Positions 1 to 15,280 of a stretch of DNA of 15,613 bases are shown here, piece after piece. This stretch comes from a virus (lineage: Duplodnaviria > Heunggongvirae > Uroviricota > Caudoviricetes): the IMG/VR virus record IMGVR_UViG_3300038300_000093; one strand, written 5' to 3'. Numbering within the stretch: position 1 is the first letter of the stretch; each line of letters opens with the position of its first letter. The notes under the pieces are model-generated. The model ran no database searches. It saw nothing but the letters and a program-made list of their open reading frames with translations, and had not been told where the DNA came from. A program made the position numbers and the translations under genes.

Positions 1-309
1 TTAAAGTGAAAGATATAGCTTTGTATGTTGCTCAAATGTTTTTTTCAACATGTCAGCGTATAAGCCTTTAAACTCTTTAGTGACTTTATACTCATACTTT
101 CTTATCTTTCCAAATTCCATATCATATAAATCCATAGCGTTTAATTTGATCTTTACAATTACGCCTCTTGGAAGCTTGAACGTAATAAAGTACTTTTCAC
201 TGTCTTGAGCGAAGTTTTTAGCTCCTGTCATCATTGCGAGCTTTCTAGCTCCGTTAGATGACTGAGTGAGTTGGTTAAGTACTTCGTTGGCTGAGAATGA
301 TGATGTCAT
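1..309 (-). CDS. Hypothetical protein, 102 aa; resembles a widespread phage/MGE family with QL..MTGAKNF...D.Y.MEF motifs (recalled, not searched)
   Basis: ORF track; AAAGGACA RBS at 315-322; own promoter unit 1; TAA at 1-3. Confidence 0.9.
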   Translation of the reverse strand: MTSSFSANEVLNQLTQSSNGARKLAMMTGAKNFAQDSEKYFITFKLPRGVIVKIKLNAMDLYDMEFGKIRKYEYKVTKEFKGLYADMLKKTFEQHTKLYLSL

Positions 310-361
310 GATTTTGTCCTTTCTTTTTTTGTAAGCTTGCTTAGTGCTTCTTACTAAAATT

Positions 362-389
362 AATATAGTCGCTTAACTTAATAATGATA
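362..389 (-). promoter_or_regulatory. Unit 1 promoter (variant -35)
   Basis: TATCAT-16-TATATT. Confidence 0.55.
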
Positions 390-430
390 GCCCTACTTTA
401 AAAATAATGTAACATTTCTCTACAGGCAAT

Positions 431-472
431 AAAAAAGCCCCTCAATAATGATTAATTATCTGTTGGGGCTTT
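431..472 (-). terminator. Intrinsic terminator
   Basis: AAAGCCCC 434-441 / GGGGCTTT 465-472 with inner ATAAT/ATTAT pairing, followed by TTTTTTATT on minus. Confidence 0.85.
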
Positions 473-592
473 AGCAGACTGGTTTATTCTCTTATCGCTA
501 CTAGAGGTAGGGCTTTTGGCAACATCTCATTCACTGGCTTATCAAATATAGTAGCTCCCTTAGGCTTTCAAAGATCAAAGCGTTTCCTGCAT
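431..592 (-). ncRNA. Candidate ~160-nt structured small RNA
   Basis: Promoter unit 2 upstream, terminator downstream, no RBS-led ORF; helices 549-555/497-503 and 564-568/577-581. Confidence 0.45.
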
Positions 593-598
593 GACTCT

Positions 599-626
599 AT
601 AATACTGGTTTAATTGGATTATTCAA
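599..626 (-). promoter_or_regulatory. Unit 2 promoter
   Basis: TTGAAT-16-TATTAT. Confidence 0.7.
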
Positions 627-629
627 GCC

Positions 630-728
630 CTATTTATAATTATTTATTACTTTTATCAAATCTTTTTCAAGTTGTCTAAATTCTTTACTATGATTATAAA
701 AATCAATGTCAGCCTTATGTATTAGCAT
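630..728 (-). CDS. Possible 32-aa peptide MLIHKADIDFYNHSKEFRQLEKDLIKVINNYK
   Basis: Manual translation; ATG overlaps the upstream stop (ATGCTAA); TAG falls inside repeat unit 2; weak RBS. Confidence 0.4.
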   Translation of the reverse strand: MLIHKADIDFYNHSKEFRQLEKDLIKVINNYK

Positions 729-862
729 TTCTTTCTAAAGTAGCTTTTTACATTGGCAATGATTTCTTTTCTTTCAGCTTTTGGAGCTATAAGAAAACCG
801 ACTGCAGAGACTATTGCGAAAAATCCGATAAAAACTAGAGTGAAGAAAATTGAGTCGTTCAT
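722..862 (-). CDS. 46-aa single-pass membrane peptide MNDSIFFTLVFIGFFAIVSAVGFLIAPKAERKEIIANVKSYFRKKC
   Basis: Manual translation (below the ORF track cutoff); AAAGGACA RBS at 868-875; hydrophobic residues 5-26 then a basic tail. Confidence 0.8.
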   Translation of the reverse strand: MNDSIFFTLVFIGFFAIVSAVGFLIAPKAERKEIIANVKSYFRKKC

Positions 863-916
863 GATGATGTCCTTTCTAAGTTTTGTAAGCCTGCTTAGTG
901 CTTCTTACTATTCTTT

Positions 917-944
917 ACTATATAGGCTTGAGTTGTTAATTCAA
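917..944 (-). promoter_or_regulatory. Unit 3 promoter
   Basis: TTGAAT-16-TATAGT. Confidence 0.8.
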
Positions 945-962
945 GCCCTGTTTTAAATTAAA

Positions 963-1187
963 TTAAAATTTCTTTTTGCTGTATATCATTAAGTTCAAGT
1001 ATTCACGTTCAAGCTGTTCTTTCTTCTTTCTCCACTCTTGCGCTGTCTTAGAGCTGTGATTAAAGCCCTCTCTATCTCCTGCCTGACTACAGTGACTTGC
1101 ATCAAGCGCATAGTCAAAAGACTTTTCATCAGCTTGTAGTATTAAGATTTCGAGTTCTTCTTTAGTGTTGAAAATTGAGATGGCCAT
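963..1187 (-). CDS. Hypothetical protein, 74 aa
   Basis: ORF track; AAGGACA RBS 1195-1201; unit 4. Confidence 0.85.
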   Translation of the reverse strand: MAISIFNTKEELEILILQADEKSFDYALDASHCSQAGDREGFNHSSKTAQEWRKKKEQLEREYLNLMIYSKKKF

Positions 1188-1240
1188 GTTACTTTGTCCT
1201 TGTTTTTTTGTAAGCCTGCTTAGTGCTTCTTACTAATCTT

Positions 1241-1268
1241 AATATAGTAGCTCAACTTCATAATGATA
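1241..1268 (-). promoter_or_regulatory. Unit 4 promoter (variant -35)
   Basis: TATCAT-16-TATATT. Confidence 0.55.
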
Positions 1269-1359
1269 GCCCTACTTTAAAAATAATGTAACATTTCTTA
1301 TGATTTATGTATCCTAATCATTGCGATTAGAAACACTATTGTTATAAATGCCAGTTCTT

Positions 1360-1560
1360 TCACTTTTGCATGAGACTTATTAAAAGATCATTCTTCTTTG
1401 TGACTTCTTTTGTTATGTGCTTTTGCAATATGTCCGGCTTGATATATCCAGAGCTCTCACAGTTCGCATTTATGAACTTAGTTGCAACTTTCAAATCTAA
1501 GCCAAGATCATAACATCGCTTTGCTGCTTGATAGTTGCTTATATGAATTTCTGTCTTCAT
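1360..1560 (-). CDS. Hypothetical protein, 66 aa
   Basis: ORF track; RBS 1566-1571; unit 5. Confidence 0.85.
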   Translation of the reverse strand: MKTEIHISNYQAAKRCYDLGLDLKVATKFINANCESSGYIKPDILQKHITKEVTKKNDLLISLMQK

Positions 1561-1591
1561 GACTTTGTCCTTTCTAATTTTAACTTACTTA

Positions 1592-1619
1592 ACTATATCA
1601 TCGTTTAGGGCTCTTTCAA
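1592..1619 (-). promoter_or_regulatory. Unit 5 promoter
   Basis: TTGAAA-16-TATAGT. Confidence 0.8.
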
Positions 1620-1632
1620 GCCCTACTTTGAA

Positions 1633-2028
1633 TTAAATGCAAAATCTATCAATATGAATTTCTTTTGTTATTCTGTCAGCCATTCTCAAGCCTCTTGCTT
1701 TATTGATATGGCCTGTATACATGTCAGACTCTTTTAGAGCTGTCAGAACTGGCAAAGGGCATAATACGATATCAATGTCGTTATCTTTCTGGGCAACGCT
1801 TAGAGCGTCCAATACAGCTTCATTCATGTTAAATTGAATCCTTATGTCAGTCCAAGATGTAGTACTTCTCTTGATCTCTTTTTCTTCCACTTCCAACATT
1901 AAAGCTTTACAGCGATCAACCGAGCAAGGCTTAAGCTCAGTTCCATCGACAAACTTGAAAGGATGGTTAGAACTGAAATTTGCAACTCTGAGGCCGTTGC
2001 TTAATGTTGCTGTAGTGTACTGATCCAT
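1633..2028 (-). CDS. Hypothetical protein, 131 aa (NFSS.HPF.F.DG motif, phage-type)
   Basis: ORF track; RBS 2034-2039; unit 6. Confidence 0.9.
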   Translation of the reverse strand: MDQYTTATLSNGLRVANFSSNHPFKFVDGTELKPCSVDRCKALMLEVEEKEIKRSTTSWTDIRIQFNMNEAVLDALSVAQKDNDIDIVLCPLPVLTALKESDMYTGHINKARGLRMADRITKEIHIDRFCI

Positions 2029-2080
2029 GATGATGTCCTTTTATTTTGTAAGCTTGCTTGATTGCTTCTTACTATTCTTT

Positions 2081-2108
2081 ACTATAGCGGTGCTTTGGGC
2101 TTTTGCAA
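2081..2108 (-). promoter_or_regulatory. Unit 6 promoter
   Basis: TTGCAA-16-TATAGT. Confidence 0.8.
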
Positions 2109-2123
2109 GCCCTTCTTTAAAGA

Positions 2124-2330
2124 TTATACTGTTTGGTTTATGCTACATTTATCTCTTGGAATGAAAACTTGTACATAAGGATAAACAGTATCGCTTACTT
2201 CTTTCTTAATCCTTATATCGAATCCATTGCTGTAAGAGTAAAGAACTTCATGCTGTGAGCCCTTAGGGCACATTGTAGGATGGTTTGGGTGAGTCACTGC
2301 CATTGTGATTGTGGTTTTTACTTCGCTCAT
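2124..2330 (-). CDS. Hypothetical protein, 68 aa
   Basis: ORF track; RBS 2336-2341; unit 7. Confidence 0.85.
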   Translation of the reverse strand: MSEVKTTITMAVTHPNHPTMCPKGSQHEVLYSYSNGFDIRIKKEVSDTVYPYVQVFIPRDKCSINQTV

Positions 2331-2383
2331 GATATTGTCCTTTCTAAGTTTTGTAAGCTTGCTTAGTGCTTCTTACTAATCTT

Positions 2384-2411
2384 AATATAGTAGCTCAAAC
2401 GAATAGTTCAA
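2384..2411 (-). promoter_or_regulatory. Unit 7 promoter
   Basis: TTGAAC-16-TATATT. Confidence 0.8.
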
Positions 2412-2440
2412 GCCCTACTTTAAAATTCTTTTGATTATTT

Positions 2441-2602
2441 TCACTTATCCTCTGAGATTGTTTTAAATCTTACTAAAAACAATAAGTTTGATTTGATCAA
2501 ATGATCATTGTGTTCAGTCTCAGAGATGGCTGTAGCGACTCTCATTGTTTTCTTGACAATCTTACCGCTGTTTTTGATTAGTGAGCTTAGAGATTTTTTC
2601 AT
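2441..2602 (-). CDS. 53-aa basic hypothetical protein MKKSLSSLIKNSGKIVKK...
   Basis: Manual translation; RBS 2605-2610 unusually close to ATG; unit 8. Confidence 0.65.
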   Translation of the reverse strand: MKKSLSSLIKNSGKIVKKTMRVATAISETEHNDHLIKSNLLFLVRFKTISEDK

Positions 2603-2640
2603 GATGTCCTTTGCATTGAGTTATCTTTCTTACTAAGATT

Positions 2641-2668
2641 ACTATAAGGGCTTAACCGTTAAAGTCAA
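2641..2668 (-). promoter_or_regulatory. Unit 8 promoter
   Basis: TTGACT-16-TATAGT. Confidence 0.8.
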
Positions 2669-2684
2669 GCCCTGTTTTGAAAGT

Positions 2685-2855
2685 TTAGTAAGTATATCCT
2701 AAGATATCCATTGATTCCTCAAGAGTTTGATTACTCTTTGCTCTTGGAGAGTTAAAGAGGCTATCATGTAATTCCTGCTCTTCAGGAGTCATTTCAAATA
2801 GTTCTGCGAATTGCGGGGAGTTTAAAATTTCTTCTAATTTTTGATTGCTGTTCAT
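2685..2855 (-). CDS. 56-aa acidic hypothetical protein MNSNQKLEEILNSPQFAELFEMTPEEQEL...
   Basis: Manual translation; RBS 2861-2866; unit 9. Confidence 0.8.
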   Translation of the reverse strand: MNSNQKLEEILNSPQFAELFEMTPEEQELHDSLFNSPRAKSNQTLEESMDILGYTY

Positions 2856-2911
2856 GATGATGTCCTTTTCTTTCTGTTTTGTAAGCTTGCTTAGTGCTTC
2901 TTACTAATCTT

Positions 2912-2939
2912 AATATAGTCGCACTAAGGAATGTTGCAA
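2912..2939 (-). promoter_or_regulatory. Unit 9 promoter
   Basis: TTGCAA-16-TATATT. Confidence 0.8.
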
Positions 2940-2952
2940 GCCCTGTTTTAAA

Positions 2953-3126
2953 CTATTTTAACATTTTTTTAGATATTAGTCCCATGATCCAATCTTTTTC
3001 CTCTTTGTTATATTCGCTGCTCTCATCAACGTCAACATAGTAACAGTATAAAGCATCATTTGATTGACTTTCTATATACTCTAATACTCTTTTCCTATAT
3101 TCTTCATTCTCTAAATAACGATTCAT
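2953..3126 (-). CDS. 57-aa hypothetical protein MNRYLENEEYRKRVLEYIESQ...
   Basis: Manual translation; variant RBS AAGGGCA 3134-3140; degenerate unit 10. Confidence 0.75.
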   Translation of the reverse strand: MNRYLENEEYRKRVLEYIESQSNDALYCYYVDVDESSEYNKEEKDWIMGLISKKMLK

Positions 3127-3175
3127 AACACTTTGCCCTTGTATTTGTTATCTACAATTAAAGAACAAAAATTGA

Positions 3176-3208
3176 AATATTATTAGGGCTTAATTAAGTT
3201 TAAGCCCT
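3176..3208 (-). promoter_or_regulatory. Unit 10, degenerate (palindrome kept, boxes decayed)
   Basis: AGGGCTTAA 3185-3193 / TTAAGCCCT 3200-3208; -35 TTAAAC. Confidence 0.4.
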
Positions 3209-3218
3209 TTTAAGCCGT

Positions 3219-3614
3219 CTAGCTCGCTTTCTTTTCCTCTTTCCACTCATCGAGTTGATCAGCTCTCTCGGATGCCTTCTTTGCCCATGTATACGATCCA
3301 CAGCCATAAGAGTTGTATTCTCTTTCTCTCCTTCTTTGTTCCTGCTCATACTCTTGAACTGTAACAAGTTCCCAGTCAACACAATATTCTTCACTATAGT
3401 CATCTTTATAACTAATAGAGTTAATTACACTTTGTGCAAAATCCTCAATGCCGTCTTGAGCTTCATCTAAAGAAAGTTCACGGCTTATGTAGTCGAAGCC
3501 TCCTTTGAATTTCCAGTACTGCGGGCATTCGCCTTTCCCGTCCCATGAGTGAGCGCCATAGTTTTCTTTGTACTGCATGGTGATGAATATTAAAAATGTG
3601 CTTGACTTACTCAT
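3219..3614 (-). CDS. Hypothetical protein, 131 aa; motif ENYGAHxWDGxGECPQYWKFKGG recalled from T4-like/large phage hypotheticals
   Basis: ORF track frame; start moved from 3665 to 3614 using RBS 3620-3625. Confidence 0.9.
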   Translation of the reverse strand: MSKSSTFLIFITMQYKENYGAHSWDGKGECPQYWKFKGGFDYISRELSLDEAQDGIEDFAQSVINSISYKDDYSEEYCVDWELVTVQEYEQEQRRREREYNSYGCGSYTWAKKASERADQLDEWKEEKKAS

Positions 3615-3663
3615 GATGATGTCCTTTTCTTTTTTAAGTTGCTTAGTGCTTCTTACTGATATC

Positions 3664-3691
3664 AATATAAGGGCTTAACCGTTAAAGTCAA
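3664..3691 (-). promoter_or_regulatory. Unit 11 promoter
   Basis: TTGACT-16-TATATT. Confidence 0.8.
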
Positions 3692-3704
3692 GCCCTGTTT
3701 TAAA

Positions 3705-3848
3705 TTACTTTCCCCACTTTATTACAAAAAAGTTTTCATTGCTCGCATTTGCCAAAAACAGAGTTACCATTGTATCAATATAAAACAAATCTCTTGACAT
3801 TCTAAATTCTTCATCTCTTGTTACTAGATCTATTAAGTTGCTGTTCAT
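3705..3848 (-). CDS. 47-aa hypothetical protein MNSNLIDLVTRDEEFRMSRDLFYIDTMVTLFLANASNENFFVIKWGK
   Basis: Manual translation; RBS 3854-3859; unit 12. Confidence 0.75.
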   Translation of the reverse strand: MNSNLIDLVTRDEEFRMSRDLFYIDTMVTLFLANASNENFFVIKWGK

Positions 3849-3904
3849 GATGATGTCCTTTTCTTTCTGTTTTGTAAGCTTGCTTAGTGCTTCTTACTAA
3901 TCTT

Positions 3905-3932
3905 ACTATAGTGGTACTTTGGGCTTTTGCAA
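3905..3932 (-). promoter_or_regulatory. Unit 12 promoter
   Basis: TTGCAA-16-TATAGT. Confidence 0.8.
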
Positions 3933-3947
3933 GCCCTATTTTGAAAT

Positions 3948-4430
3948 TTATTTTAATTGATTGAATATTTCTAATGCTTTTTTGTATTCATCCTCAGTGC
4001 CTCTTGGAATATCAAAAGCTACAAAGATAAAAGAGTCATCGCTGTCGTTTGGCTTTAAGCGGTGGCTTATGTCTGATCTTAGTAAAACTACTTCACCAGT
4101 ATTAACGACAATTTTATCATCCTCAGTTTCTATTATCCTGCCTTCTGACTTTATTATTACCATTACTGAGTAGCTGAATGTATCAACGTGCCAATTACTC
4201 TCTTGGCAGAATGTAACTCTATGGTAAAAATAATCCATTGCCTCGCTACTCATGAAGCTCTCTAGCTTCTCGTATATTTCTTCTACAATTTCAAATCCTT
4301 CGATAAAGTCATCGTTAGACGTTATTACATTTCCCGTCCTAGTCTCATAGTTGTCACTTATTCTTTCTGACCATGAAGATAAAAGCTCAAGTGAAAGTGA
4401 TCCTATATTTGATGATTGAATTTCTGTCAT
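3948..4430 (-). CDS. Cupin / 2OG-Fe(II)-oxygenase-like double-stranded beta-helix protein, 160 aa
   Basis: WHVD...GEVVLLRSDISHRLKP fits an HxD...H metal triad; RBS 4437-4442; unit 13. Confidence 0.65.
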   Translation of the reverse strand: MTEIQSSNIGSLSLELLSSWSERISDNYETRTGNVITSNDDFIEGFEIVEEIYEKLESFMSSEAMDYFYHRVTFCQESNWHVDTFSYSVMVIIKSEGRIIETEDDKIVVNTGEVVLLRSDISHRLKPNDSDDSFIFVAFDIPRGTEDEYKKALEIFNQLK

Positions 4431-4468
4431 TGTCTTTGTCCTTTTGATTAGTTGTTCTTACTAATCTT

Positions 4469-4496
4469 ACTATAGTGGTGTTTAGGGCTTTTGCAA
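4469..4496 (-). promoter_or_regulatory. Unit 13 promoter
   Basis: TTGCAA-16-TATAGT. Confidence 0.8.
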
Positions 4497-4514
4497 GCCC
4501 TGTTTTAAATTATT

Positions 4515-4667
4515 TTAATTGTTCACCATGAAGTCAAGATCTTCATGAGATATTTCAGAAGGCTCGCACCATCCATAACCATCGGGACGTACTTTTGTTT
4601 CTTTGTACTCTCCCGTAAACCAGTTATAGCAAATGTGAGTCGTGCCGTTATATTTTCTAGTAGCCAT
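4515..4667 (-). CDS. 50-aa hypothetical protein MATRKYNGTTHICYNWFTGEYKETKVRPDGYGWCEP...
   Basis: Manual translation; RBS 4674-4679; unit 14. Confidence 0.8.
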   Translation of the reverse strand: MATRKYNGTTHICYNWFTGEYKETKVRPDGYGWCEPSEISHEDLDFMVNN

Positions 4668-4705
4668 TGTCTTTGTCCTTTTGATTAGTTGTTCTTACTA
4701 ATCTT

Positions 4706-4733
4706 ACTATAGTGGTTGTTTGGGCTTTTGCAA
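4706..4733 (-). promoter_or_regulatory. Unit 14 promoter
   Basis: TTGCAA-16-TATAGT. Confidence 0.8.
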
Positions 4734-4751
4734 GCCCTACTTTGAATTATT

Positions 4752-5183
4752 TTATACTTTTTCTTTTTCTTTTCTTATTTCTTCAAAATATGCTTCACTT
4801 CCTCTTGTGTCTAATACTACTTTTAAATCCTTTTCTTTGATGAAATCGTTTATCATTGAATCAAAATCAGATTGCCATCTATCATCAAAACAAGAATAGC
4901 TTCCTTTCTGAATCGTTACATCTTCTTTAACGATTGTTTTGCTCTCATCATAAATGCCGTTTGGCTCCGGGTTGTTCCAGCCTTCTAAGATCAAAATGTC
5001 AGGACTTCCACCGCATGGCGTGTAAATCTTTCTGTATGATGTTCTCTTGCGTTTTGGAGTGTGGATTACTTCCAAGGCATTAGGATATTGAGCGTACTTT
5101 CTGAAAGTGAAAGACTTAAGCTTTGTTTCAGTTGCAACTATGTTGCCCATAAATTCTGACTTGCTGTAGATTGTTACTTTCAT
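4752..5183 (-). CDS. Hypothetical protein, 143 aa (KYAQY.NA...PKRKR motif)
   Basis: ORF track; RBS 5190-5195; unit 15. Confidence 0.9.
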   Translation of the reverse strand: MKVTIYSKSEFMGNIVATETKLKSFTFRKYAQYPNALEVIHTPKRKRTSYRKIYTPCGGSPDILILEGWNNPEPNGIYDESKTIVKEDVTIQKGSYSCFDDRWQSDFDSMINDFIKEKDLKVVLDTRGSEAYFEEIRKEKEKV

Positions 5184-5224
5184 GATCTTTGTCCTTTTTA
5201 AGTTTAGTTGTTCTTACTAATCTT

Positions 5225-5252
5225 AATATAGTAGCTCAAACGAATAGTTCAA
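5225..5252 (-). promoter_or_regulatory. Unit 15 promoter
   Basis: TTGAAC-16-TATATT. Confidence 0.8.
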
Positions 5253-5265
5253 GCCCTATTTTGAA

Positions 5266-5484
5266 TTATTTTAAATTTTTCTCTTCCCACCAATCACACA
5301 TAGATTTAAACTTATCTCTTCTAATCTGTCTGCCCCGCTTCATGGCTTCGCTTCTTGAGCTTTCCCTATTGTTAACACAGTGAGGAACTCCAGTTCTCCC
5401 ATCTGGTGCTAGAATGTCTATTTCAAAATGTCCCCGTCCAATCCCCTGCTTAGTGACACTTATGTAAAAATCTGATAGTTTCAT
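5266..5484 (-). CDS. Hypothetical protein, 72 aa, translationally coupled to the upstream gene
   Basis: ORF track; ATGA overlap at 5481-5484. Confidence 0.75.
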   Translation of the reverse strand: MKLSDFYISVTKQGIGRGHFEIDILAPDGRTGVPHCVNNRESSRSEAMKRGRQIRRDKFKSMCDWWEEKNLK

Positions 5485-5651
5485 TTTAACAACTCTGCTT
5501 TGTATTCTCTTCCATTCGGATGAAAGAAAGTTACAATTTCATAATTTCCTTTTCTTTCTATTTTTCTTATCTTCGCTGTAAATGTTTCTGTAGATGATTC
5601 TATTACACGCTCTGGAAGATTGTCAAATTCTTTTTTACATAAACGTCTCAT
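5481..5651 (-). CDS. Hypothetical protein, 56 aa (MRRLCKKEFD...)
   Basis: ORF track frame; start moved from 5753 to 5651 using RBS 5658-5663. Confidence 0.8.
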   Translation of the reverse strand: MRRLCKKEFDNLPERVIESSTETFTAKIRKIERKGNYEIVTFFHPNGREYKAELLK

Positions 5652-5673
5652 GATCTTTGTCCTGTTGGTTATT

Positions 5674-5687
5674 GGGGCTTTCGCCCC
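5674..5687 (-). other. GGGGC-GAAA-GCCCC tetraloop hairpin in a promoterless intergenic gap
   Basis: 5-bp all-GC stem with GNRA loop on minus; no U-tract. Confidence 0.6.
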
Positions 5688-5694
5688 TGCCTTT

Positions 5695-5895
5695 CTAGTA
5701 GAATTCAATTCTTTGGTAAGTTTCAAACTCAAAGTCTTCACAGCCTGCATCAATTAAAGCGTCAGACGCTTCATTGTAGTTCATTGAGTTACTTACTACG
5801 AAATCTGATCCCTCTTGCTTTAGATGCTTTGCGTCGGTGAATCCTGCTTTGTGCAGTGCTTTGACTGCTTTCTTGATGTTGCTTGACTTACTCAT
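5695..5895 (-). CDS. Hypothetical protein, 66 aa
   Basis: ORF track; RBS 5902-5907; unit 16. Confidence 0.85.
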   Translation of the reverse strand: MSKSSNIKKAVKALHKAGFTDAKHLKQEGSDFVVSNSMNYNEASDALIDAGCEDFEFETYQRIEFY

Positions 5896-5949
5896 GGTGT
5901 TTGTCCTTTTCTTTTTTTGTAAGCTTGCTTAGTGCTTCTTACTAAAATT

Positions 5950-5977: not shown

Positions 5978-5993
5978 GCCCTGTTTTAAAAGT

Positions 5994-9054: not shown

Positions 9055-9077
9055 GCCCTGTTTTAAATTATTTTTAA

Positions 9078-9338: not shown

Positions 9339-9348
9339 GTCGCATCCT

Positions 9349-9376: not shown

Positions 9377-9388
9377 GCCCTGTTGTGA

Positions 9389-9520
9389 TTAGGAAGCATT
9401 CTTCCAACTCTTGTCCTTTCTGCTGTAGTTCTTCTTAGACTCTACAACACGAGTTGTTGGATTGAATCCCCAACTTCTGCGATTAAGCTTTGTTGGATCT
9501 GATATTTTGATCTTTTTCAT
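9389..9520 (-). CDS. 43-aa basic protein MKKIKISDPTKLNRRSWGFNPTTRVVESKKNYSRKDKSWKNAS (R..W..NP.TRV..SKK.Y.RK motif recalled from phage small proteins)
   Basis: Manual translation; RBS 9527-9532; unit 25. Confidence 0.85.
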   Translation of the reverse strand: MKKIKISDPTKLNRRSWGFNPTTRVVESKKNYSRKDKSWKNAS

Positions 9521-9566
9521 TTTCTTGTCCTTTCTAAGTTTTAGTTGTCTCTCTCTTACTAATCTT

Positions 9567-9594
9567 AATATAAGGGCTCAAACTCATTGTTCAA
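9567..9594 (-). promoter_or_regulatory. Unit 25 promoter
   Basis: TTGAAC-16-TATATT. Confidence 0.8.
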
Positions 9595-9612
9595 GCCCTA
9601 TTTTGAATAATA

Positions 9613-9771
9613 TTAAACTTTTTTAGAATCTTCATCATCTGAACCGAAAAGTTCATCCATAAGTTCTTTAGTGCTGGAGTAGGATCTTCTATCAGAATCA
9701 TCTTTTGATCTTTGTTTTATTAAAGGCTTTATATCTCTTTCCCACTCTGCTTCTTTTTCATCTTCAGTCAT
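9613..9771 (-). CDS. 52-aa charged hypothetical protein (MTEDEKEAEW...)
   Basis: Start moved from 9822 to 9771 using AGGAGT 9776-9781. Confidence 0.8.
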   Translation of the reverse strand: MTEDEKEAEWERDIKPLIKQRSKDDSDRRSYSSTKELMDELFGSDDEDSKKV

Positions 9772-9807
9772 AATAACTCCTATTAATTTGATTAACTTAC
9801 TAATCTT

Positions 9808-9835
9808 AATATAAGGGCTCAAATGATTATTACAA
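9808..9835 (-). promoter_or_regulatory. Unit 26 promoter
   Basis: TTGTAA-16-TATATT. Confidence 0.8.
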
Positions 9836-9842
9836 GCCCTAT

Positions 9843-10052
9843 TTAAAATTTATTTAAAACATATTCATCACTTGATCCGATTCTTTCAAAATTCTTTTCT
9901 TTGTCAGCATCTTCAATCTTAACAATCTTATATGAATGTCCAGTTCTCTTGCCAAGGCGATTCCATCCCGCTACAATTCCGTCCTCTTTGCCTCTCTCGC
10001 AATAGCGGTGATCTTCTCTTGTTCCATTGCAACTGTATGTAAACTTGATCAT
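9843..10052 (-). CDS. Hypothetical protein, 69 aa
   Basis: ORF track; RBS 10059-10064; unit 27. Confidence 0.85.
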   Translation of the reverse strand: MIKFTYSCNGTREDHRYCERGKEDGIVAGWNRLGKRTGHSYKIVKIEDADKEKNFERIGSSDEYVLNKF

Positions 10053-10078
10053 TGTGTGTGTCCTTTTTAAGTTGTTAT

Positions 10079-10106
10079 ACTATAGCGGTGCTTAGGGCTA
10101 TTTCAA
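10079..10106 (-). promoter_or_regulatory. Unit 27 promoter
   Basis: TTGAAA-16-TATAGT. Confidence 0.8.
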
Positions 10107-10120
10107 GCCCTGTTTATAAT

Positions 10121-10312
10121 TTAAGCTATCAGTATTTCTTCGATCTTCATATTATATGAGTCTTGAAGATCATTCATAGTTGCATTACTGCCATGAATAT
10201 TATCATTAATGTAATTTTGAATGTCAGCTTCTTCTATGTTGTCTGGAATGCTTACAGTTCCACTCCACTCTTCAGTGACTCTTTGAATAATTTTTACGTT
10301 TATTTCTTTCAT
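10121..10312 (-). CDS. Hypothetical acidic protein, 63 aa
   Basis: ORF track; RBS 10319-10324; unit 28. Confidence 0.85.
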   Translation of the reverse strand: MKEINVKIIQRVTEEWSGTVSIPDNIEEADIQNYINDNIHGSNATMNDLQDSYNMKIEEILIA

Positions 10313-10349
10313 TTTCTTTGTCCTTTTGTTTGATTAACTTACTAATCTT

Positions 10350-10377
10350 ACTATAAGGGCTCAAATGATTATTACAA
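10350..10377 (-). promoter_or_regulatory. Unit 28 promoter
   Basis: TTGTAA-16-TATAGT. Confidence 0.8.
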
Positions 10378-10393
10378 GCCCTATTTAAAACTA

Positions 10394-10678
10394 TTATGCA
10401 ACTTTACCAAGTGGCGTTACATTTCCGTTTAATACTTCAACCAATGTTTCAACTGAGATTTTTAACTTAAGATTAAATCCGAATGAATCTTTTCTATAGT
10501 AAAGCCCTTCATTGTCAATTAACACTTCGCGAGTGATCATCTCTTTATTGCCTGCTTCGTATTCAAAAGCAATCCCTGTATGATGTCCTGCGTTTAGATT
10601 AGGATAATCAGTTAGTATGCTATTTGTTACTGTAGTGATCAACTGGCGGAGTTCTGTGGTATTGAATGGCTTCTTCAT
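10394..10678 (-). CDS. Hypothetical protein, 94 aa (MKKPFNTTEL...)
   Basis: Start moved from 10738 to 10678 using RBS 10684-10689. Confidence 0.85.
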   Translation of the reverse strand: MKKPFNTTELRQLITTVTNSILTDYPNLNAGHHTGIAFEYEAGNKEMITREVLIDNEGLYYRKDSFGFNLKLKISVETLVEVLNGNVTPLGKVA

Positions 10679-10723
10679 GATGATGTCCTTTTCTTTTGTT
10701 TGATTGTCTTTCTTACTAAGCTT

Positions 10724-10751
10724 ACTATAAGGGCTCAACTCATTAAGTCAA
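10724..10751 (-). promoter_or_regulatory. Unit 29 promoter
   Basis: TTGACT-16-TATAGT. Confidence 0.8.
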
Positions 10752-10764
10752 GCCCTATTTTAAA

Positions 10765-11121
10765 CTATTCTCCTAAACATTGACAACATTGTCCGCTGTC
10801 GTATCCTCGGCCTGTCGGCTCTCCGCATGAATAACATTCATAATCATCATCATCGGGACATGGTCTCTCTTCTTCGATCTCTGGTTGCTGTGACTCTAAC
10901 TGTAATGATTTTTCCAAAGTCATTACAACAAAATTATATCTGCCAGTTGCCCACTTGTCAGCCCAGTCTTGATCAAACTTTAAAACTTTTTTAATTTCAG
11001 CCTTACTATCAGACGTGAGATAAACACTCTTACCAAGATACTTGAAAGTTTTTGATTCATTGAAATATAATTTTCTTTTGATATATCCTGTCGTATCGTC
11101 TGCGATTACTAATTGCGCCAT
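10765..11121 (-). CDS. Hypothetical protein, 118 aa, with C-terminal CxxC...CxxC zinc-ribbon-like motif
   Basis: ORF track; RBS 11127-11132; no own promoter (second gene of an operon). Confidence 0.85.
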   Translation of the reverse strand: MAQLVIADDTTGYIKRKLYFNESKTFKYLGKSVYLTSDSKAEIKKVLKFDQDWADKWATGRYNFVVMTLEKSLQLESQQPEIEEERPCPDDDDYECYSCGEPTGRGYDSGQCCQCLGE

Positions 11122-11134
11122 TTCCTTGTCCTCT

Positions 11135-11344
11135 TTACTTTCTACTGTCTGATACTTCTGTTCTAACGTCAGAGCCTTTCAAGCCTATCTTGTTAGCTTC
11201 TCCATTGGCGAAATCTTTGATTTCCTTGAGTTCTTTTATCAAGTTGTCAACTTCATCAGTATCTCCTCTCATATCCCACATCAATTTGTTTTGAATCTTC
11301 AAACCATTATTCTTGATGCTGATTGTTACAAATACTCTTTTCAT
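11135..11344 (-). CDS. Hypothetical protein, 69 aa (MKRVFVTISI...)
   Basis: Start moved from 11374 to 11344 using RBS 11350-11355. Confidence 0.85.
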   Translation of the reverse strand: MKRVFVTISIKNNGLKIQNKLMWDMRGDTDEVDNLIKELKEIKDFANGEANKIGLKGSDVRTEVSDSRK

Positions 11345-11372
11345 TGTCTTGTCCTTTTCTTTAAGTTGATTC

Positions 11373-11400
11373 AATATATATGTCGTTTAGATTATTACAA
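11373..11400 (-). promoter_or_regulatory. Unit 30 promoter (drives a 2-gene operon)
   Basis: TTGTAA-16-TATATT. Confidence 0.75.
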
Positions 11401-11530
11401 GCCATATTTTAAAAAAAGGGCCACATCTTGTTAATTCAAGTTCTTCCTAATCTTTTCAATTAAGACGTATTTTATATCCCTATGAAGGATAACTATATAC
11501 TAATGCAAGCACTAAGTTGTTTTTATAACT

Positions 11531-11746
11531 CTACATTGTTATGTAGAGTTCTACGCATTCCTTAGAGTAGCCTTCTGCTTTCGCTCTTTCTCTAAAGCGT
11601 TCTTCTGTGGTAGGGAGATTCCTCAGTGTGAATCTGTTCCCTGATGCAGACTGTCTGCACTTTTCCCATAGTCTCATAAGGCGGAAGGCGCTGTCTGATC
11701 CTCCTGCCAACTCCTCTAGGCGATCGTTTTCTTCTTGTTCTGTCAT
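11531..11746 (-). CDS. Hypothetical protein, 71 aa
   Basis: ORF track; RBS 11754-11759; unit 31. Confidence 0.85.
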   Translation of the reverse strand: MTEQEENDRLEELAGGSDSAFRLMRLWEKCRQSASGNRFTLRNLPTTEERFRERAKAEGYSKECVELYITM

Positions 11747-11776
11747 TTCTCTGTGTCCTTTTATTTAAGATAATTT

Positions 11777-11804
11777 AATATAAGGGCTTAACCGTTAAAG
11801 TCAA
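11777..11804 (-). promoter_or_regulatory. Unit 31 promoter
   Basis: TTGACT-16-TATATT. Confidence 0.8.
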
Positions 11805-11817
11805 GCCCTGTTTTAAA

Positions 11818-12009
11818 TTAATCAGCTTTAATATCTGAGTAAATCATCATATCTCTTTCTTTACAGTGGAATTCTAACAATCCTTCTGAATCAATATAAG
11901 TTTCTTTCTTTGAACTAATATTAAATACAGTCATGATTTGTTCTTCTGTAAGATCGGCTTTGAACTTTGTTACTATCTTATTTCCCAGTACTACTGTTAA
12001 TTCATTCAT
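11818..12009 (-). CDS. Hypothetical protein, 63 aa
   Basis: ORF track; RBS 12016-12021; unit 32. Confidence 0.85.
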   Translation of the reverse strand: MNELTVVLGNKIVTKFKADLTEEQIMTVFNISSKKETYIDSEGLLEFHCKERDMMIYSDIKAD

Positions 12010-12040
12010 TGTCTTTGTCCTTTTTCTTTAAGTTATTTAC

Positions 12041-12068
12041 ACTATAGTGGTTGTTTGGGCTTTTGCAA
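12041..12068 (-). promoter_or_regulatory. Unit 32 promoter
   Basis: TTGCAA-16-TATAGT. Confidence 0.8.
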
Positions 12069-12081
12069 GCCCTATTTTGAA

Positions 12082-12399
12082 TTAATCCTCTATTCTATCG
12101 TGAATTGATACTGGTTGACCGCTTACCGCTTCTCTAAAGCGACTATCACAACTCCAAGCAAAGTTACCGCCTGCCATACAATGACGCTTTGAATCGGATG
12201 GCTTGAGACTAAGGCAAGTACTGCCAAAGATTTCTCTCTTGATCAAATCCACTCTCAGAGCTTCAGGAGCGTTTTCCTCCTTGATCCATCCTCTTGGATG
12301 TTCTATGTAAAGAAGATCCGTCTTACTGCTTAATCCTTTGTTTGTGCAATCTCCAAGGCGAGAATCTCTTAGTACGCTTACTGATATGAATTTTTTCAT
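12082..12399 (-). CDS. Hypothetical protein, 105 aa; GDCTN.G.SS...M.GGNF...DSRF...P..IHDR.E family recalled from diverse phages
   Basis: ORF track; RBS 12405-12410; unit 33. Confidence 0.9.
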   Translation of the reverse strand: MKKFISVSVLRDSRLGDCTNKGLSSKTDLLYIEHPRGWIKEENAPEALRVDLIKREIFGSTCLSLKPSDSKRHCMAGGNFAWSCDSRFREAVSGQPVSIHDRIED

Positions 12400-12452
12400 T
12401 TTGCTGTCCTTTCTAAGTTTTGTAAGCCTGCTTAGTGCTTCTTACTATTCTT

Positions 12453-12480
12453 AATATAGTAGCTCAAATTATTATTGCAA
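12453..12480 (-). promoter_or_regulatory. Unit 33 promoter
   Basis: TTGCAA-16-TATATT. Confidence 0.8.
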
Positions 12481-12500
12481 GCCCTATTTTAAATTATTTT

Positions 12501-12526
12501 AAAAAAAGCTCTAAGTTAATAGAGCC
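12501..12526 (-). terminator. Intrinsic terminator
   Basis: GCTCTA 12508-12513 / TAGAGC 12520-12525; T7 on minus. Confidence 0.7.
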
Positions 12527-12535
12527 TTGATTATT

Positions 12536-12589
12536 TTACATTCCGTTGGTTTCTTCACGTCCACCGTCATTCTTGTCGTGGTCATTCAT
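12536..12589 (-). CDS. Possible 17-aa micropeptide MNDHDKNDGGREETNGM
   Basis: Manual translation; AAAGGAAC RBS 12595-12602; own promoter (unit 34) and terminator. Confidence 0.45.
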   Translation of the reverse strand: MNDHDKNDGGREETNGM

Positions 12590-12625
12590 AATATGTTCCT
12601 TTGTTTTGTTGTTGTTTACTATCTT

Positions 12626-12653
12626 AACTTAATGGCTTAACTCGATCTTTCAA
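12626..12653 (-). promoter_or_regulatory. Unit 34 promoter
   Basis: TTGAAA-16-TAAGTT. Confidence 0.6.
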
Positions 12654-12672
12654 GCCCTTTTTTGATTAATCT

Positions 12673-13032
12673 TTAAGATACTTTAAGCATTTCTTCTATT
12701 TCAGATGGTGTGCTCTCACAATGTAAATTTGGAAGAGGAACAGAAAGCGTGTTTCTGTAAGAATCTAACAGAGTGAATCTTTTAACAATTTCATTCACTT
12801 TCTTTTCATTAATCCAGTAATGTTTAGACTTGTCTAAATTGTCCCATGCTTCTTTAATAGCCTTCTCTGTGACGCTGAAACACATGTTGGTGCTTGAGTA
12901 TACACGAGCATCTACTTTAGAGCCATCAAGCAAAGTAAGAATGACTTGTACATCTTCACTACTTACTACGCCATGTAGACTTCTTATACTTCCCGCTCTG
13001 ACTGTCAGAGATAATGTTTTATAGTTTTTCAT
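12673..13032 (-). CDS. Hypothetical protein, 119 aa (MKNYKTLSLT...)
   Basis: Start moved from 13089 to 13032 using RBS 13040-13045. Confidence 0.85.
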   Translation of the reverse strand: MKNYKTLSLTVRAGSIRSLHGVVSSEDVQVILTLLDGSKVDARVYSSTNMCFSVTEKAIKEAWDNLDKSKHYWINEKKVNEIVKRFTLLDSYRNTLSVPLPNLHCESTPSEIEEMLKVS

Positions 13033-13052
13033 TTGCTGTTGTCCTTTTAAAG

Positions 13053-13130
13053 TTAGTAGTGAGAGAGAACCATTTCTTTTAACCTTCACACTATTACGTG
13101 TTCTTCGGAGTTATTCTCTCTCACTACTTA
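13053..13130. repeat. 15-bp perfect inverted repeat enclosing 44 nt in a 5'UTR (possible MITE or structured leader)
   Basis: AGTAGTGAGAGAGAA 13055-13069 / TTCTCTCTCACTACT 13114-13128. Confidence 0.85.
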
Positions 13131-13131
13131 T

Positions 13132-13159
13132 ACTATAAGGGCTCAAACTTATTGTTCAA
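13132..13159 (-). promoter_or_regulatory. Unit 35 promoter
   Basis: TTGAAC-16-TATAGT. Confidence 0.8.
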
Positions 13160-13172
13160 GCCCTATTTTGAA

Positions 13173-13493
13173 TTATTTGTAATGAATTTCCATTACATCT
13201 CCACTGTCTTTAACATCATTCTTTATTGCAAGAACTATGAGCTTGTTGATTTGCCATTCTAGCATAACATCATCAATTTCGCCTTCAATCTCAGGAACTG
13301 TATTCAAAACGATCATTTTGATCTCAAAGAGTCTCTTCTTCTTTTCAAATCGTTCTGTCAAGTCAGTGCGGATCTTTTCAACTGTAGTCATATCATCGTT
13401 TAGACGAGAGGCAAGAGCCTTCAATTCGTTACAGCTTTCACCATCAAAACAGCGTTCTTTACAGTACTCACAAACTTCATTGTCTTTTGTCAT
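13173..13493 (-). CDS. Hypothetical protein, 106 aa, N-terminal CxxCxxxC-x5-C
   Basis: Start moved from 13559 to 13493 using RBS 13499-13504. Confidence 0.85.
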   Translation of the reverse strand: MTKDNEVCEYCKERCFDGESCNELKALASRLNDDMTTVEKIRTDLTERFEKKKRLFEIKMIVLNTVPEIEGEIDDVMLEWQINKLIVLAIKNDVKDSGDVMEIHYK

Positions 13494-13538
13494 TGTATTG
13501 TCCTTTTCTTTTGTTGAGTTGTCTTTCTTACTAATCTT

Positions 13539-13566
13539 AATATAAGGGCTTAAACTCATTGTTCAA
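13539..13566 (-). promoter_or_regulatory. Unit 36 promoter
   Basis: TTGAAC-16-TATATT. Confidence 0.8.
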
Positions 13567-13581
13567 GCCCTATTTAAATTA

Positions 13582-13929
13582 TTAGTTCATTATTCCTATT
13601 TTATTGTCATCTGTAACATAAGCATCAAAAGATCCATAAGGCTTACAAAGTTCTGTCAACTTATCGCCTTCATTGTAATCACCATCCCAAAATCCTGCCC
13701 CATGTCCATTACATGTTAAAATGAAATCGTGAGCGATCTGAGACAAGTCTTGATCTTCACTGTTGATCAGTTCAGCATTAGAGCTGTAGAAGTCCTCAAA
13801 CTTGATCTGTAGATTCTTTGCATCTTCTTTTAAGATGTCCTCATTTGAATAGTCATCAAGATAATCATCTCCGTCAGAACTACTCCAAAGAAGAGTTTCA
13901 AATAGGCTGTTGATAGTTTCTGTTTTCAT
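13582..13929 (-). CDS. Acidic hypothetical protein, 115 aa; HDF.LT.NGHGAGFWD family recalled from phages
   Basis: Start moved from 13986 to 13929 using RBS 13934-13939. Confidence 0.9.
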   Translation of the reverse strand: MKTETINSLFETLLWSSSDGDDYLDDYSNEDILKEDAKNLQIKFEDFYSSNAELINSEDQDLSQIAHDFILTCNGHGAGFWDGDYNEGDKLTELCKPYGSFDAYVTDDNKIGIMN

Positions 13930-13971
13930 GTTGTGTCCTTTTGTTTGTTTAGTTTGTTTCTTACTAATCTT

Positions 13972-13999
13972 AATATAGTAGCCCAAACTATTAATGCAA
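13972..13999 (-). promoter_or_regulatory. Unit 37 promoter
   Basis: TTGCAT-16-TATATT. Confidence 0.8.
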
Positions 14000-14020
14000 G
14001 CCCTATTTTAAAATAAATGC

Positions 14021-14099
14021 AAAAAAAAGAGTTAAGCCAAAAGGACAGTAAAGGCTTAACTCTATAAACTAAGTACAAAGGACAGTAAGACTTAGTTTT
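14021..14099 (-). terminator. Tandem hairpins; the first is a minus-strand terminator
   Basis: 11-bp IR 14028-14038/14053-14063 with T8 on minus; 9-bp IR 14066-14074/14090-14098. Confidence 0.85.
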
Positions 14100-14108
14100 A
14101 GCTACTGG

Positions 14109-14228
14109 TCAGTTACGCTTAAGGAGCTTAACTTTTACCAATAACTTTCCCCACCATTTTAAATCATCATACCAGAGAATATCATCTATCAGTTCTATCA
14201 TTGCAAAATCTTCTTCATAACTACTCAT
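14109..14228 (-). CDS. 39-aa peptide MSSYEEDFAMIELIDDILWYDDLKWWGKLLVKVKLLKRN (acidic N-half, basic C-half)
   Basis: Manual translation; RBS 14235-14240; unit 38. Confidence 0.7.
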   Translation of the reverse strand: MSSYEEDFAMIELIDDILWYDDLKWWGKLLVKVKLLKRN

Positions 14229-14252
14229 TGTCTTTGTCCTTTTCTTTAAGAT

Positions 14253-14280
14253 ACTATAAAGGCTTAACTCGATTAGTCAA
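14253..14280 (-). promoter_or_regulatory. Unit 38 promoter
   Basis: TTGACT-16-TATAGT. Confidence 0.8.
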
Positions 14281-14283
14281 GTC

Positions 14284-14640
14284 CTACTTTGAAATTAATT
14301 TGCGTAATTCGCAAGTCATTAAACCATCATCGATTTTTACGCCTGACTTTCTTAGAGTTCTTTTAATCTGAATTACTTCTTTGCGGTTTTCTATTAAGTC
14401 TCTCATCTGAATTGATTCTAACTTTTGAGAGAGTAAAAGTCTTTCATGTGCTAAAGTTCTGTATGAATCCAATTCATTACAATCTAAGAACTCTTCATGG
14501 CTTGACCATACAAGCATTGCATTGTTGCTTATGTGACTGCTGTCGTGTTTCTTTGATCTCTTCTTTATCAGATCATCAAAAGGCTTTATCTTGATGTCTA
14601 GCTCTTCGATTTGATTTCTTAGTTTGATTACATGTTTCAT
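14284..14640 (-). CDS. Hypothetical protein, 118 aa (MKHVIKLRNQ...)
   Basis: Start moved from 14688 to 14640 using RBS 14645-14650; TAG lies inside unit 38. Confidence 0.85.
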   Translation of the reverse strand: MKHVIKLRNQIEELDIKIKPFDDLIKKRSKKHDSSHISNNAMLVWSSHEEFLDCNELDSYRTLAHERLLLSQKLESIQMRDLIENRKEVIQIKRTLRKSGVKIDDGLMTCELRKLISK

Positions 14641-14673
14641 TGTTTGTCCTTTTGTTGTTATCTTACTAAGATT

Positions 14674-14701
14674 AATATAAGGGCTCAACCGTTAAAGTCA
14701 A
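14674..14701 (-). promoter_or_regulatory. Unit 39 promoter
   Basis: TTGACT-16-TATATT. Confidence 0.8.
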
Positions 14702-14716
14702 GCCCTACTTTAAAGA

Positions 14717-15106
14717 TTAACCGGAGACAACAGAGGCATTGATTACAAGATCTACAGGGAGCTTGTAAGTATTACCATCTCTTGCATCTTTTCCAAGTAC
14801 TGGATATTTACTTGCTCTTGGTTTAAGTCCAACAATTTCAAGAGTCTTTCCTTGAATCATTACAGTCTTTCCAAGTAATGATTCGTCAAGTCCAAGGAAC
14901 TTTGCATTTTCATTCCAATCAATCATTGCTTTTGTAACCACTGATCCGTCAGTGGAATTTTCAACAACTTCAAGTTTAAGATTGAAACTTAAATCTGAAT
15001 AACTTGCAGATCCTGCTGAGATAGTACAGCCATGCTTTTCAGCTACTGCTTTGAGAGCTTCGTTGATGTCTTCTCTCATTGTGCGTATTTTTTGTTTTGT
15101 TATCAT
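14717..15106 (-). CDS. Hypothetical protein, 129 aa (G.KPRA.KYP...DG.TYK motif, phage-type)
   Basis: Start moved from 15133 to 15106 using RBS 15113-15118. Confidence 0.9.
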   Translation of the reverse strand: MITKQKIRTMREDINEALKAVAEKHGCTISAGSASYSDLSFNLKLEVVENSTDGSVVTKAMIDWNENAKFLGLDESLLGKTVMIQGKTLEIVGLKPRASKYPVLGKDARDGNTYKLPVDLVINASVVSG

Positions 15107-15160
15107 TTTGTATGTCCTTTTCTTTTTTAGCAAGCTTGCTTAGTGCTTCTTACTAATCTT

Positions 15161-15188
15161 AATATAGTAGCTCAATTAAATACTTCAA
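15161..15188 (-). promoter_or_regulatory. Unit 40 promoter
   Basis: TTGAAG-16-TATATT. Confidence 0.8.
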
Positions 15189-15209
15189 GCCCTTTTTAAA
15201 AAGAAATGC

Positions 15210-15280
15210 AAAAAAAAGAGTTAAGCCAAAAGGACAGTAAAGGCTTAACTCTTATAAACTAAGAAGGGCTTAGTTTTTTT
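15210..15280. terminator. Back-to-back terminators (minus-strand hairpin 1, plus-strand hairpin 2)
   Basis: 12-bp IR 15216-15227/15242-15253 with T8 on minus; AAACTAAG/CTTAGTTT IR 15256-15276 followed by T-run on plus. Confidence 0.85.

Follow-up and report, generated by a model that had tools for sequence, protein, structure and literature searches.

The virus record IMGVR_UViG_3300038300_000093 (Caudoviricetes) carries an array of co-oriented small genes, most of which are headed by a copy of one intergenic repeat, and related contigs show that these genes are gained, lost, replaced and reordered, for the most part with breakpoints in the repeats. The whole analysed stretch of 15,613 nucleotides (nt) is referred to as the window. 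Very probably, the array belongs to the hyperplastic region of early genes in a large, uncultured lytic phage and is built of cassettes of the promoter-early stem-loop (PeSL) type, known from the T4-type coliphages RB49 and phi1 (Arbiol et al. 2010, PMC2839356), with the repeats serving as portable homology.

The array extends past both ends of the window, where the gene lists of other contigs of the same phage hold further small genes on either side; below the window the small-gene field goes on for at least 9 kb. The same phage is found in a Joint Genome Institute (JGI) metagenome, as a 44-kb contig with the gene order of the window, and in a Logan assembly.

The repeat unit and its hairpin

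A profile of the intergenic repeat (nhmmer) finds exactly 40 copies in the window, all on the minus strand, and a strict 45-nt pattern of the repeat has 19 matches in the window versus none in 200 shuffles. The unit measures 75-105 nt, and most intergenic spaces are 68-104 nt long. At the 5' end of the unit the preceding gene's stop codon (mostly TAA) lies within an A/T-rich stretch, and the core AGGGCTTG follows 8-13 nt on; in 31 of 38 repeats the stop codon is found at most 20 nt (median 10) from the core. The TTG of the core opens a -35 hexamer (TTGACT, TTGAAC, TTGCAA or TTGTAA), which is separated by a spacer of 16 nt from a -10 box TATAGT or TATATT, sigma-70-type hexamers being present in 35-40 copies. 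The start of the leader is likewise conserved (AAGATTAGTAAGAA or a variant) and is followed by an optional 21-nt insert, an A-rich stretch, a ribosome site and the ATG, which is located 57-132 nt (median 78) past the start of the core. The ribosome site, AAAGGAC, is uniform and is found 4-7 nt 5' of the ATG in nearly all open reading frames (ORFs).

1..15613, minus strand: array of co-oriented small genes, one repeat each (ORF, profile and ribosome-site listings)
348..15211, minus strand: 40 repeats (nhmmer profile, anchor listings, sigma-70-type hexamers)
AGGGCTTG core starts of repeats 1-14: 15193, 14706, 14285, 14004, 13571, 13164, 12658, 12485, 12073, 11809, 11405, 10756, 10382, 10111
AGGGCTTG core starts of repeats 15-28: 9840, 9599, 9381 (weak), 9059, 8696, 7726, 7416, 6899, 6530, 6255, 5982, 5257, 4738, 4501
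AGGGCTTG core starts of repeats 29-40: 3937, 3696, 3208 (weak), 2944, 2673, 2416, 2113, 1624, 1273, 949, 631, 394
6821..6907, minus strand: typical unit between g22 and g23, with stop codon, A/T-rich stretch, -35 box in the hairpin, -10 box, leader and ribosome site

A first-pass annotation of this DNA had described 40 cassettes of promoter and gene with the preceding stop codon set against the repeat, and both the number of copies and the position of the stop codons bear this out. Its further statement that nearly all of the co-oriented small genes are repeat-headed holds for most of the 43 genes; five of them (g12, g18, g27, g28 and g42) have no repeat of their own, and the repeat at 631 precedes a non-coding stretch instead of a gene. 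The co-orientation itself stands, with the strand corrected to minus.

The inverted repeat AGGGCTT...AAGCCCT consists of the AGGGCTTG core and the 3' end of the spacer, such that the -35 box lies in the 5' arm of the stem. Evaluated over 29 nt, 30 of 37 repeats fold at -5 kcal/mol or below, compared with 12% of control segments from the same DNA; the mean over the repeat hairpins is -10.2 kcal/mol (mean z = -3.8), and the hairpin of the typical unit (6821..6907) reaches -15.7 kcal/mol (z = -5.4). Three classes of hairpins occur: tight hairpins with a loop of 4-6 nt, hairpins with a long stem of 10-11 bp and a loop of 5-7 nt, and weakened hairpins that have lost the outer G-C pairs. When the window is taken together with its relatives (114 distinct copies), each stem position is paired in 61-96% of the copies, and one stem position exhibits real covariation (C-G, A-T and T-G). 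We also considered the inverted repeat as a protein operator of fixed spacing. This is unlikely, since the tight, long and weak classes differ in geometry, and the variable geometry makes a nucleic-acid structure the more likely reading. Read on the opposite strand, the stem runs into a T-rich sequence, the complement of the upstream element, and resembles an intrinsic terminator; 9 of the 20 terminator-like matches of a simple scan are opposite-strand repeat stems.

The transcribed leaders are unstructured (z about 0), and a candidate hairpin in the long leader was rejected on the same value. The leader of g07 (13033-13140, minus strand) is an exception: with a length of 140 nt, it folds into a long perfect hairpin of -33.7 kcal/mol (z = -5.7). 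The g07 homologues in two related contigs (L045 and L047) have a short, ordinary leader.

Structural differences from a close strain

A close strain, represented by a contig of 10.4 kb (L060), is collinear with positions 15613-8632 of the window at an identity of 92.6-97.9% and differs from it by six structural events in about 7 kb.

Event 1, 14225..14245, minus strand: L060 has an extra 93-aa (amino acid) gene and one repeat between g03 and g04
Event 2, 13923..14013, minus strand: repeat is single in the window; L060 has an extra 52-aa gene between g04 and g05
Event 3, 12004..12066, minus strand: promoter core 5' of g09 is of another subtype in L060
Event 4, 11524..11743, minus strand: L060 has an unrelated 55-aa gene in place of g10
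Event 5, 10122..10369, minus strand: repeat and g14 are missing from L060
Event 6, 9354..9364, minus strand: L060 has 157 nt extra, beside a degenerate hairpin inside g17/g18

Four of the six events are gains, losses or replacements of whole genes with both ends in repeats. Event 1 has as its junction 20 nt that are identical in both copies and reach from the ribosome site to the ATG; in event 2 the extra gene of L060 sits between two near-identical repeats of about 90 nt. In event 3 the A/T-rich stretch and the ribosome site that flank the swapped promoter core are common to both strains, and the g09 homologue of L060 has 67 extra N-terminal residues. The gene replacement of event 4 is bounded by the upstream repeat and by the A-rich sequence that precedes a degenerate repeat (core at 11513), the loss in event 5 has its junction in the A/T-rich stretch directly after the g13 stop codon, and the junction of event 6 is a short microhomology. 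L056, another contig of that sample, aligns collinearly with 1.7 kb of the window at 95.7% identity. Going by gene sizes only, L060 would differ from the window's own phage outside the window as well, by one extra 70-aa gene upstream of g02 (L060:1-2800).

The junctions of these events are located at three different places of the repeat, namely the A/T-rich stretch, the promoter body and the ribosome site, which favours homology-driven exchange and not fixed site-specific recombination. Integron cassettes are promoterless, are read from a common promoter and are moved by the tyrosine recombinase IntI at a fixed point of attC. The window resembles integrons in its array of unrelated single-gene cassettes with hairpin-forming repeats between them, and in the gain, loss and reordering at the level of cassettes; it differs in that each unit has a promoter and the position of the junction varies. 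An integron-like system that is site- or structure-specific, uses the AGGGCTT...AAGCCCT hairpin as its site and has its recombinase encoded elsewhere in the genome could account for a conserved hairpin right after each stop codon, as with attC sites, and for cassettes of single genes, and most of the genome indeed lies outside the window. No recombinase domain is found in the 43 window proteins or among the called genes for about 10 kb on either side, and no tyrosine recombinase of the IntI type was detected in the window or among the called genes flanking it. A site with hairpins of three geometries that overlap the -35 box, a promoter for each cassette and the lack of one fixed junction point also argue against such a system, and we consider it very improbable. 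The absence of a visible integrase had been noted in the first-pass annotation and is upheld, while its label "integron-like" is dropped in view of the varied junctions and the missing recombinase.

Gene order in distant relatives

More distant relatives were obtained by scanning metagenome contigs for the repeat pattern, which gave 13 contigs, and further ones via homologues of g22 and g02; in viral contigs, repeat patterns gave zero matches or single chance matches. All relatives have the promoter-gene-promoter-gene layout on a single strand. In 14 diverged contigs, 62 of 181 genes (34%) have a homologue in the window, with a mean amino acid identity of 67%, and none of the 24 immediately neighbouring pairs of shared genes found in the relatives is adjacent in the window. 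No paralogue of g02 or g22 is detectable on the window's own contigs.

For example, contig L054, part of a 63.6-kb contig with 42 repeats in 16.5 kb, carries homologues of window genes in the order g24, g26, g29, g36, g35, g31, g38, g37, g13, g32, g19, g25, g35, g37, g36, g41, g33, g22, g40. The homologues of g35, g36 and g37 are present in two copies each and in differing order (L054:3100-4870 and 8220-8880), which indicates duplication inside one array. In contig L045 the long-range order is kept (g02, g05, g07, g11 ... g12, g13) with other cassettes interspersed, and g43 and g17 have moved in. Three cassettes are located between its homologues of g11 and g12, two genes that in the window are separated by 13 nt without a repeat:

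11122..11134, minus strand: g11-g12 junction, 13 nt, no repeat

The same contig has a g04 homologue without a repeat, whose start overlaps the preceding stop codon (ATGA, L045:700-860); the same gene can therefore be promoter-led in one phage and translationally coupled in another.

Rearranged orders might also be assembly chimeras, produced by short-read assemblers that jump between repeats, and contig breaks inside repeats do occur in this phage, L001 having a repeat at either end. The orders recur, however, in independent assemblies: L036 and L040, from two samples, are 100% identical over 3089 nt, the orders of L045 and of L057 are each found in three independent assemblies, and the adjacency of g33 and g22 in L054 is found again in a Logan contig. 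The adjacency of g22 and g37 is common to two diverged contigs from different projects. Chimerism as the source of the rearranged orders is scarcely credible. The gains, losses and order changes with breaks in repeats that the first-pass annotation had anticipated for relatives are found both as the insertions, deletions and replacements of the close strain and as the scrambled order of the distant contigs.

Recombination among the repeats

Exchange has also occurred between repeats themselves. Within the window 44 pairs of repeats have an exact stretch of at least 30 nt in common, and 13 pairs one of at least 40 nt. The list comprises a block of 68 identical nt that reaches 11 nt into two unrelated genes, and a chimeric repeat.

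2845..2912, minus strand: 68-nt identical block, copy 1, starting directly behind the -10 box and ending 11 nt into the gene
3838..3905, minus strand: 68-nt identical block, copy 2, matching 2845..2912
2331..2440, minus strand: chimeric repeat (core 2416), 5' 48 nt as in repeat 5257, 3' 46 nt as in repeat 9059

Spacer class, -10 type and leader type are found in all combinations. In 54 pairs of homologues between the window and its relatives, the variable cores of 19 nt that precede or follow the same gene resemble each other no more than those of unrelated units do (0.49 vs 0.48 and 0.47 vs 0.47), and the core is thus unlinked to both neighbouring genes; between the leader and the downstream gene the linkage is weak (p = 3e-4 to 0.01). 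The travelling unit therefore tends to be a gene together with part of its leader, with promoter cores being freely exchanged. The unit of repeat plus gene proposed in the first-pass annotation accordingly describes the repeat-bounded cassette events and fails for the unlinked promoter core, as well as for one close-strain event that took out a gene together with its downstream repeat. Gene conversion between neighbouring repeats was tested by asking whether neighbours resemble each other more than distant repeats do; the trend is not significant (p = 0.10), and homogenisation within the genome is weak.

Mechanism and competing explanations

Each repeat would primarily be an expression module, consisting of a strong promoter of the host sigma-70 type whose upstream element is A/T-rich, a stem-loop that takes in the -35 box, an unstructured leader and a strong ribosome site. 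Judging from these signals, any small gene put behind the module should be expressed independently, and the stem-loop may act as a terminator, an attenuator or a 3'-end stabiliser for the transcript of the preceding gene. The approximately 40 copies, with exact common stretches of 20-68 nt, would then be used as homology by the general recombination and replication machinery of the phage. Crossovers or copy-choice between repeats could delete, insert, replace and reorder genes and swap promoter cores, and a dedicated recombinase would not be needed. The outcomes of exchange are seen directly in the strain comparison; the enzymes we infer.

Several points weigh against this account. Since intergenic DNA is almost all repeat, any event that spares the genes ends in or near a repeat, and the position of a junction does not by itself tell homology-driven exchange apart from illegitimate exchange on which selection has then acted. 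For two of the six events of the close strain, namely the 157-nt indel and an in-frame deletion in g09, the exchange used only short microhomology, a few bases in length. The sense strand has no clear U-run 3' of the stem, which makes the terminator role of the hairpin uncertain, and promoter strength, timing and terminator activity are all inferred from sequence. Some of the homologues in the distant contigs could be paralogous copies and not orthologues; orthologues or paralogues alike, homologous genes occupy different cassette contexts.

The first two of these points, together with neighbouring repeats being no more alike, to a significant degree, than distant ones and with the weak homogenisation within the genome, are what would be expected if the repeats were merely co-regulated early promoters that selection keeps alike, with gene turnover by illegitimate recombination and selection retaining those events that fall between genes. 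Against this explanation stand the extra cassette of L060 between two near-identical repeats of about 90 nt and the exact 20-mer shared at another junction, the promoter core that was swapped between strains of 93-97% identity with both flanks in place, and the chimeric repeat and 68-nt block as marks of exchange between repeats. We therefore regard it as unlikely and retain homology-driven exchange between PeSL-type repeats as the preferred reading. Besides acting as an RNA element, the conserved hairpin might serve as the site at which a structure-specific nuclease or recombinase, with its gene elsewhere in the phage, initiates exchange at the repeats. We give this little credence; if true, the array would be a true phage counterpart of the integron with promoter-bearing cassettes.

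Genes of the array

The coding capacity of the window lies entirely on the minus strand and comprises 43 small ORFs of 32-274 aa and a mini-ORF of 17 codons, with a coding density of 74%. The genes, identified by ORF and ribosome site, are given in order of transcription.

g01-g08, minus strand: 15286-15612 (partial), 14717-15106, 14284-14640, 14109-14228, 13582-13929, 13173-13493, 12673-13032, 12082-12399
g09-g16, minus strand: 11818-12009, 11531-11746, 11135-11344, 10765-11121, 10394-10678, 10121-10312, 9843-10052, 9613-9771
g17-g24, minus strand: 9389-9520, 9078-9407, 8707-8973, 7806-8630, 7426-7653, 6908-7339, 6542-6820, 6264-6461
g25-g32, minus strand: 5994-6176, 5695-5895, 5481-5651, 5266-5484, 4752-5183, 4515-4667, 3948-4430, 3705-3848
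g33-g38, minus strand: 3219-3614, 2953-3126, 2685-2855, 2441-2602, 2124-2330, 1633-2028
g39-g43, minus strand: 1360-1560, 963-1187, 722-862, 630-728, 1-309

An all-versus-all blastp of the window proteins gives no pair of paralogues at E<1e-5, in agreement with the earlier description of the genes as mutually unrelated. PHROG matches were obtained for 10 of the 43 proteins, all to families of unknown function, and Pfam and NCBIfam return almost nothing for these proteins. PADLOC and NCBIfam scans of the window proteins likewise gave nothing usable, and the suggestion of the first-pass annotation that the genes are enriched in anti-defence factors finds nothing in its support in the PHROG, Pfam, NCBIfam and PADLOC scans. 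Searches at the DNA level, in near and distant modes, return no match to the window among deposited phages, and tblastn with g31 and g38 gave no matches.

The best cultured homologues of g43 are hypothetical proteins of the T4-type Vibrio phages nt-1 and KVP40 (46-48% identity), and g43 is the sole gene of the window that points to these phages. The loci reached via g43 in viral contigs are distant (31-54% identity), and repeated promoters are sparse there. The product of g31 (3948-4430, minus strand) resembles a 2-oxoglutarate-dependent (2OG) Fe(II) oxygenase or cupin in the ESM Atlas (template-modelling score 0.6-0.69) and has a weak match to Pfam Cupin_6, which we treat as a lead only. Genes of the 2OG-Fe(II) oxygenase/cupin type are common in marine phages. 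The largest gene, g20 (7806-8630, minus strand, 274 aa), encodes a protein with a hydrophobic N-terminus, and tandem repeats of 21/27 nt (8368-8455) encode a Lys/Glu/Ala-rich stretch; among 5.8 billion proteins no relative was found, except for a 30%-identical piece in contig L042. The predicted structure of g22 is confident (pLDDT, the predicted local distance difference test score, is 88), and the model has no significant match in the PDB.

The mini-ORF (12536-12589, minus strand) is located between g07 and g08 and has its own repeat, ribosome site and terminator. Four intrinsic terminators consisting of a stem and a T-run are found on the sense strand (15216-15253, 14066-14098, 14028-14063 and 7747-7791, minus strand) and also occur in L045 and L043; their stems differ, and each loop of 14-15 nt contains GTCCTTT, the exact complement of the ribosome site AAAGGAC. 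Downstream of the repeat at 631, some 190 nt (about 425-629, minus strand) contain no ORF, end in a hairpin and T-run and could be a small RNA; this stretch has no Rfam match, and its overall fold is no better than that of shuffles (z = 0.15). Neither Rfam families nor tRNAs were found in the window.

Relation to known systems

In RB49 and phi1 the PeSL is a composite element of about 100 bp, with a stop codon in an A/T-rich stretch, sigma-70-like -35 and -10 boxes, a stem-loop between or overlapping the boxes, and a Shine-Dalgarno sequence and ATG at the 3' end (PMC2839356). PeSLs precede ORFans in hyperplastic regions and bound the insertions and deletions between close relatives, and a crossover in the A/T-rich region has been proposed (PMC2839356). 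Promoter activity, terminator activity and mini-circles have been shown for these phages, with about 52 PeSLs in a whole genome of 170 kb (PMC2839356). The units of the window have the same architecture, mostly stand before ORFans and bound the indels between close relatives, and the junction of event 5 is located where the crossover was proposed. PeSLs had been named as a parallel in the first-pass annotation, and each sequence-level feature of their definition is present here. The differences are the density of 40 units in 15.6 kb, one per gene, a unit sequence unrelated to that of RB49 and phi1, and an uncultured phage whose units are putative promoters and terminators, whereas the activities were shown in the coliphages.

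For the Vibrio phages nt-1 and KVP40, six successive ORFs set apart by PeSLs, with many rearrangements, have been described, and the consensus of the nt-1 stem-loop is A3-4 G3 - loop - C3 T3-4 (Comeau et al. 2014, PMC4122927). The stem of the window, AAAA-AGGGC...GCCCT-T, is of the same style of A-run, G3, loop, C3 and T-run. The repeat core, however, is absent from the nt-1 sequence, and the genes around the nt-1 homologue of g43 are mostly abutting, without a promoter for each. The early promoters of T4 and the host-takeover module of SPO1 comprise strong host-type promoters with conserved upstream elements and small early genes. The window shares with these clusters the many host-type promoters that drive small early genes; hairpin and turnover at the level of cassettes are features of PeSLs, and there is no similarity at the DNA level to deposited phages. 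The array belongs to the known PeSL kind, of which it is an unusually dense and well-documented case, and it does not represent a new mechanism.

To our knowledge, shuffling mediated by PeSLs has been documented in a few pairs of cultured T4-type phages only. The value of the array lies in the comparative series and not in the mechanism: it provides a natural metagenomic series with six fresh events in 7 kb relative to one close strain and at least eight more distant lineages with essentially randomised gene order. The series suggests that such shuffling is general and fast, and able to saturate tens of kilobases with cassettes of one promoter per gene. It also refines the unit of exchange, in that the promoter core moves independently of the genes, and it marks for phage biology a large pool of rapidly turned-over small early genes of unknown function.

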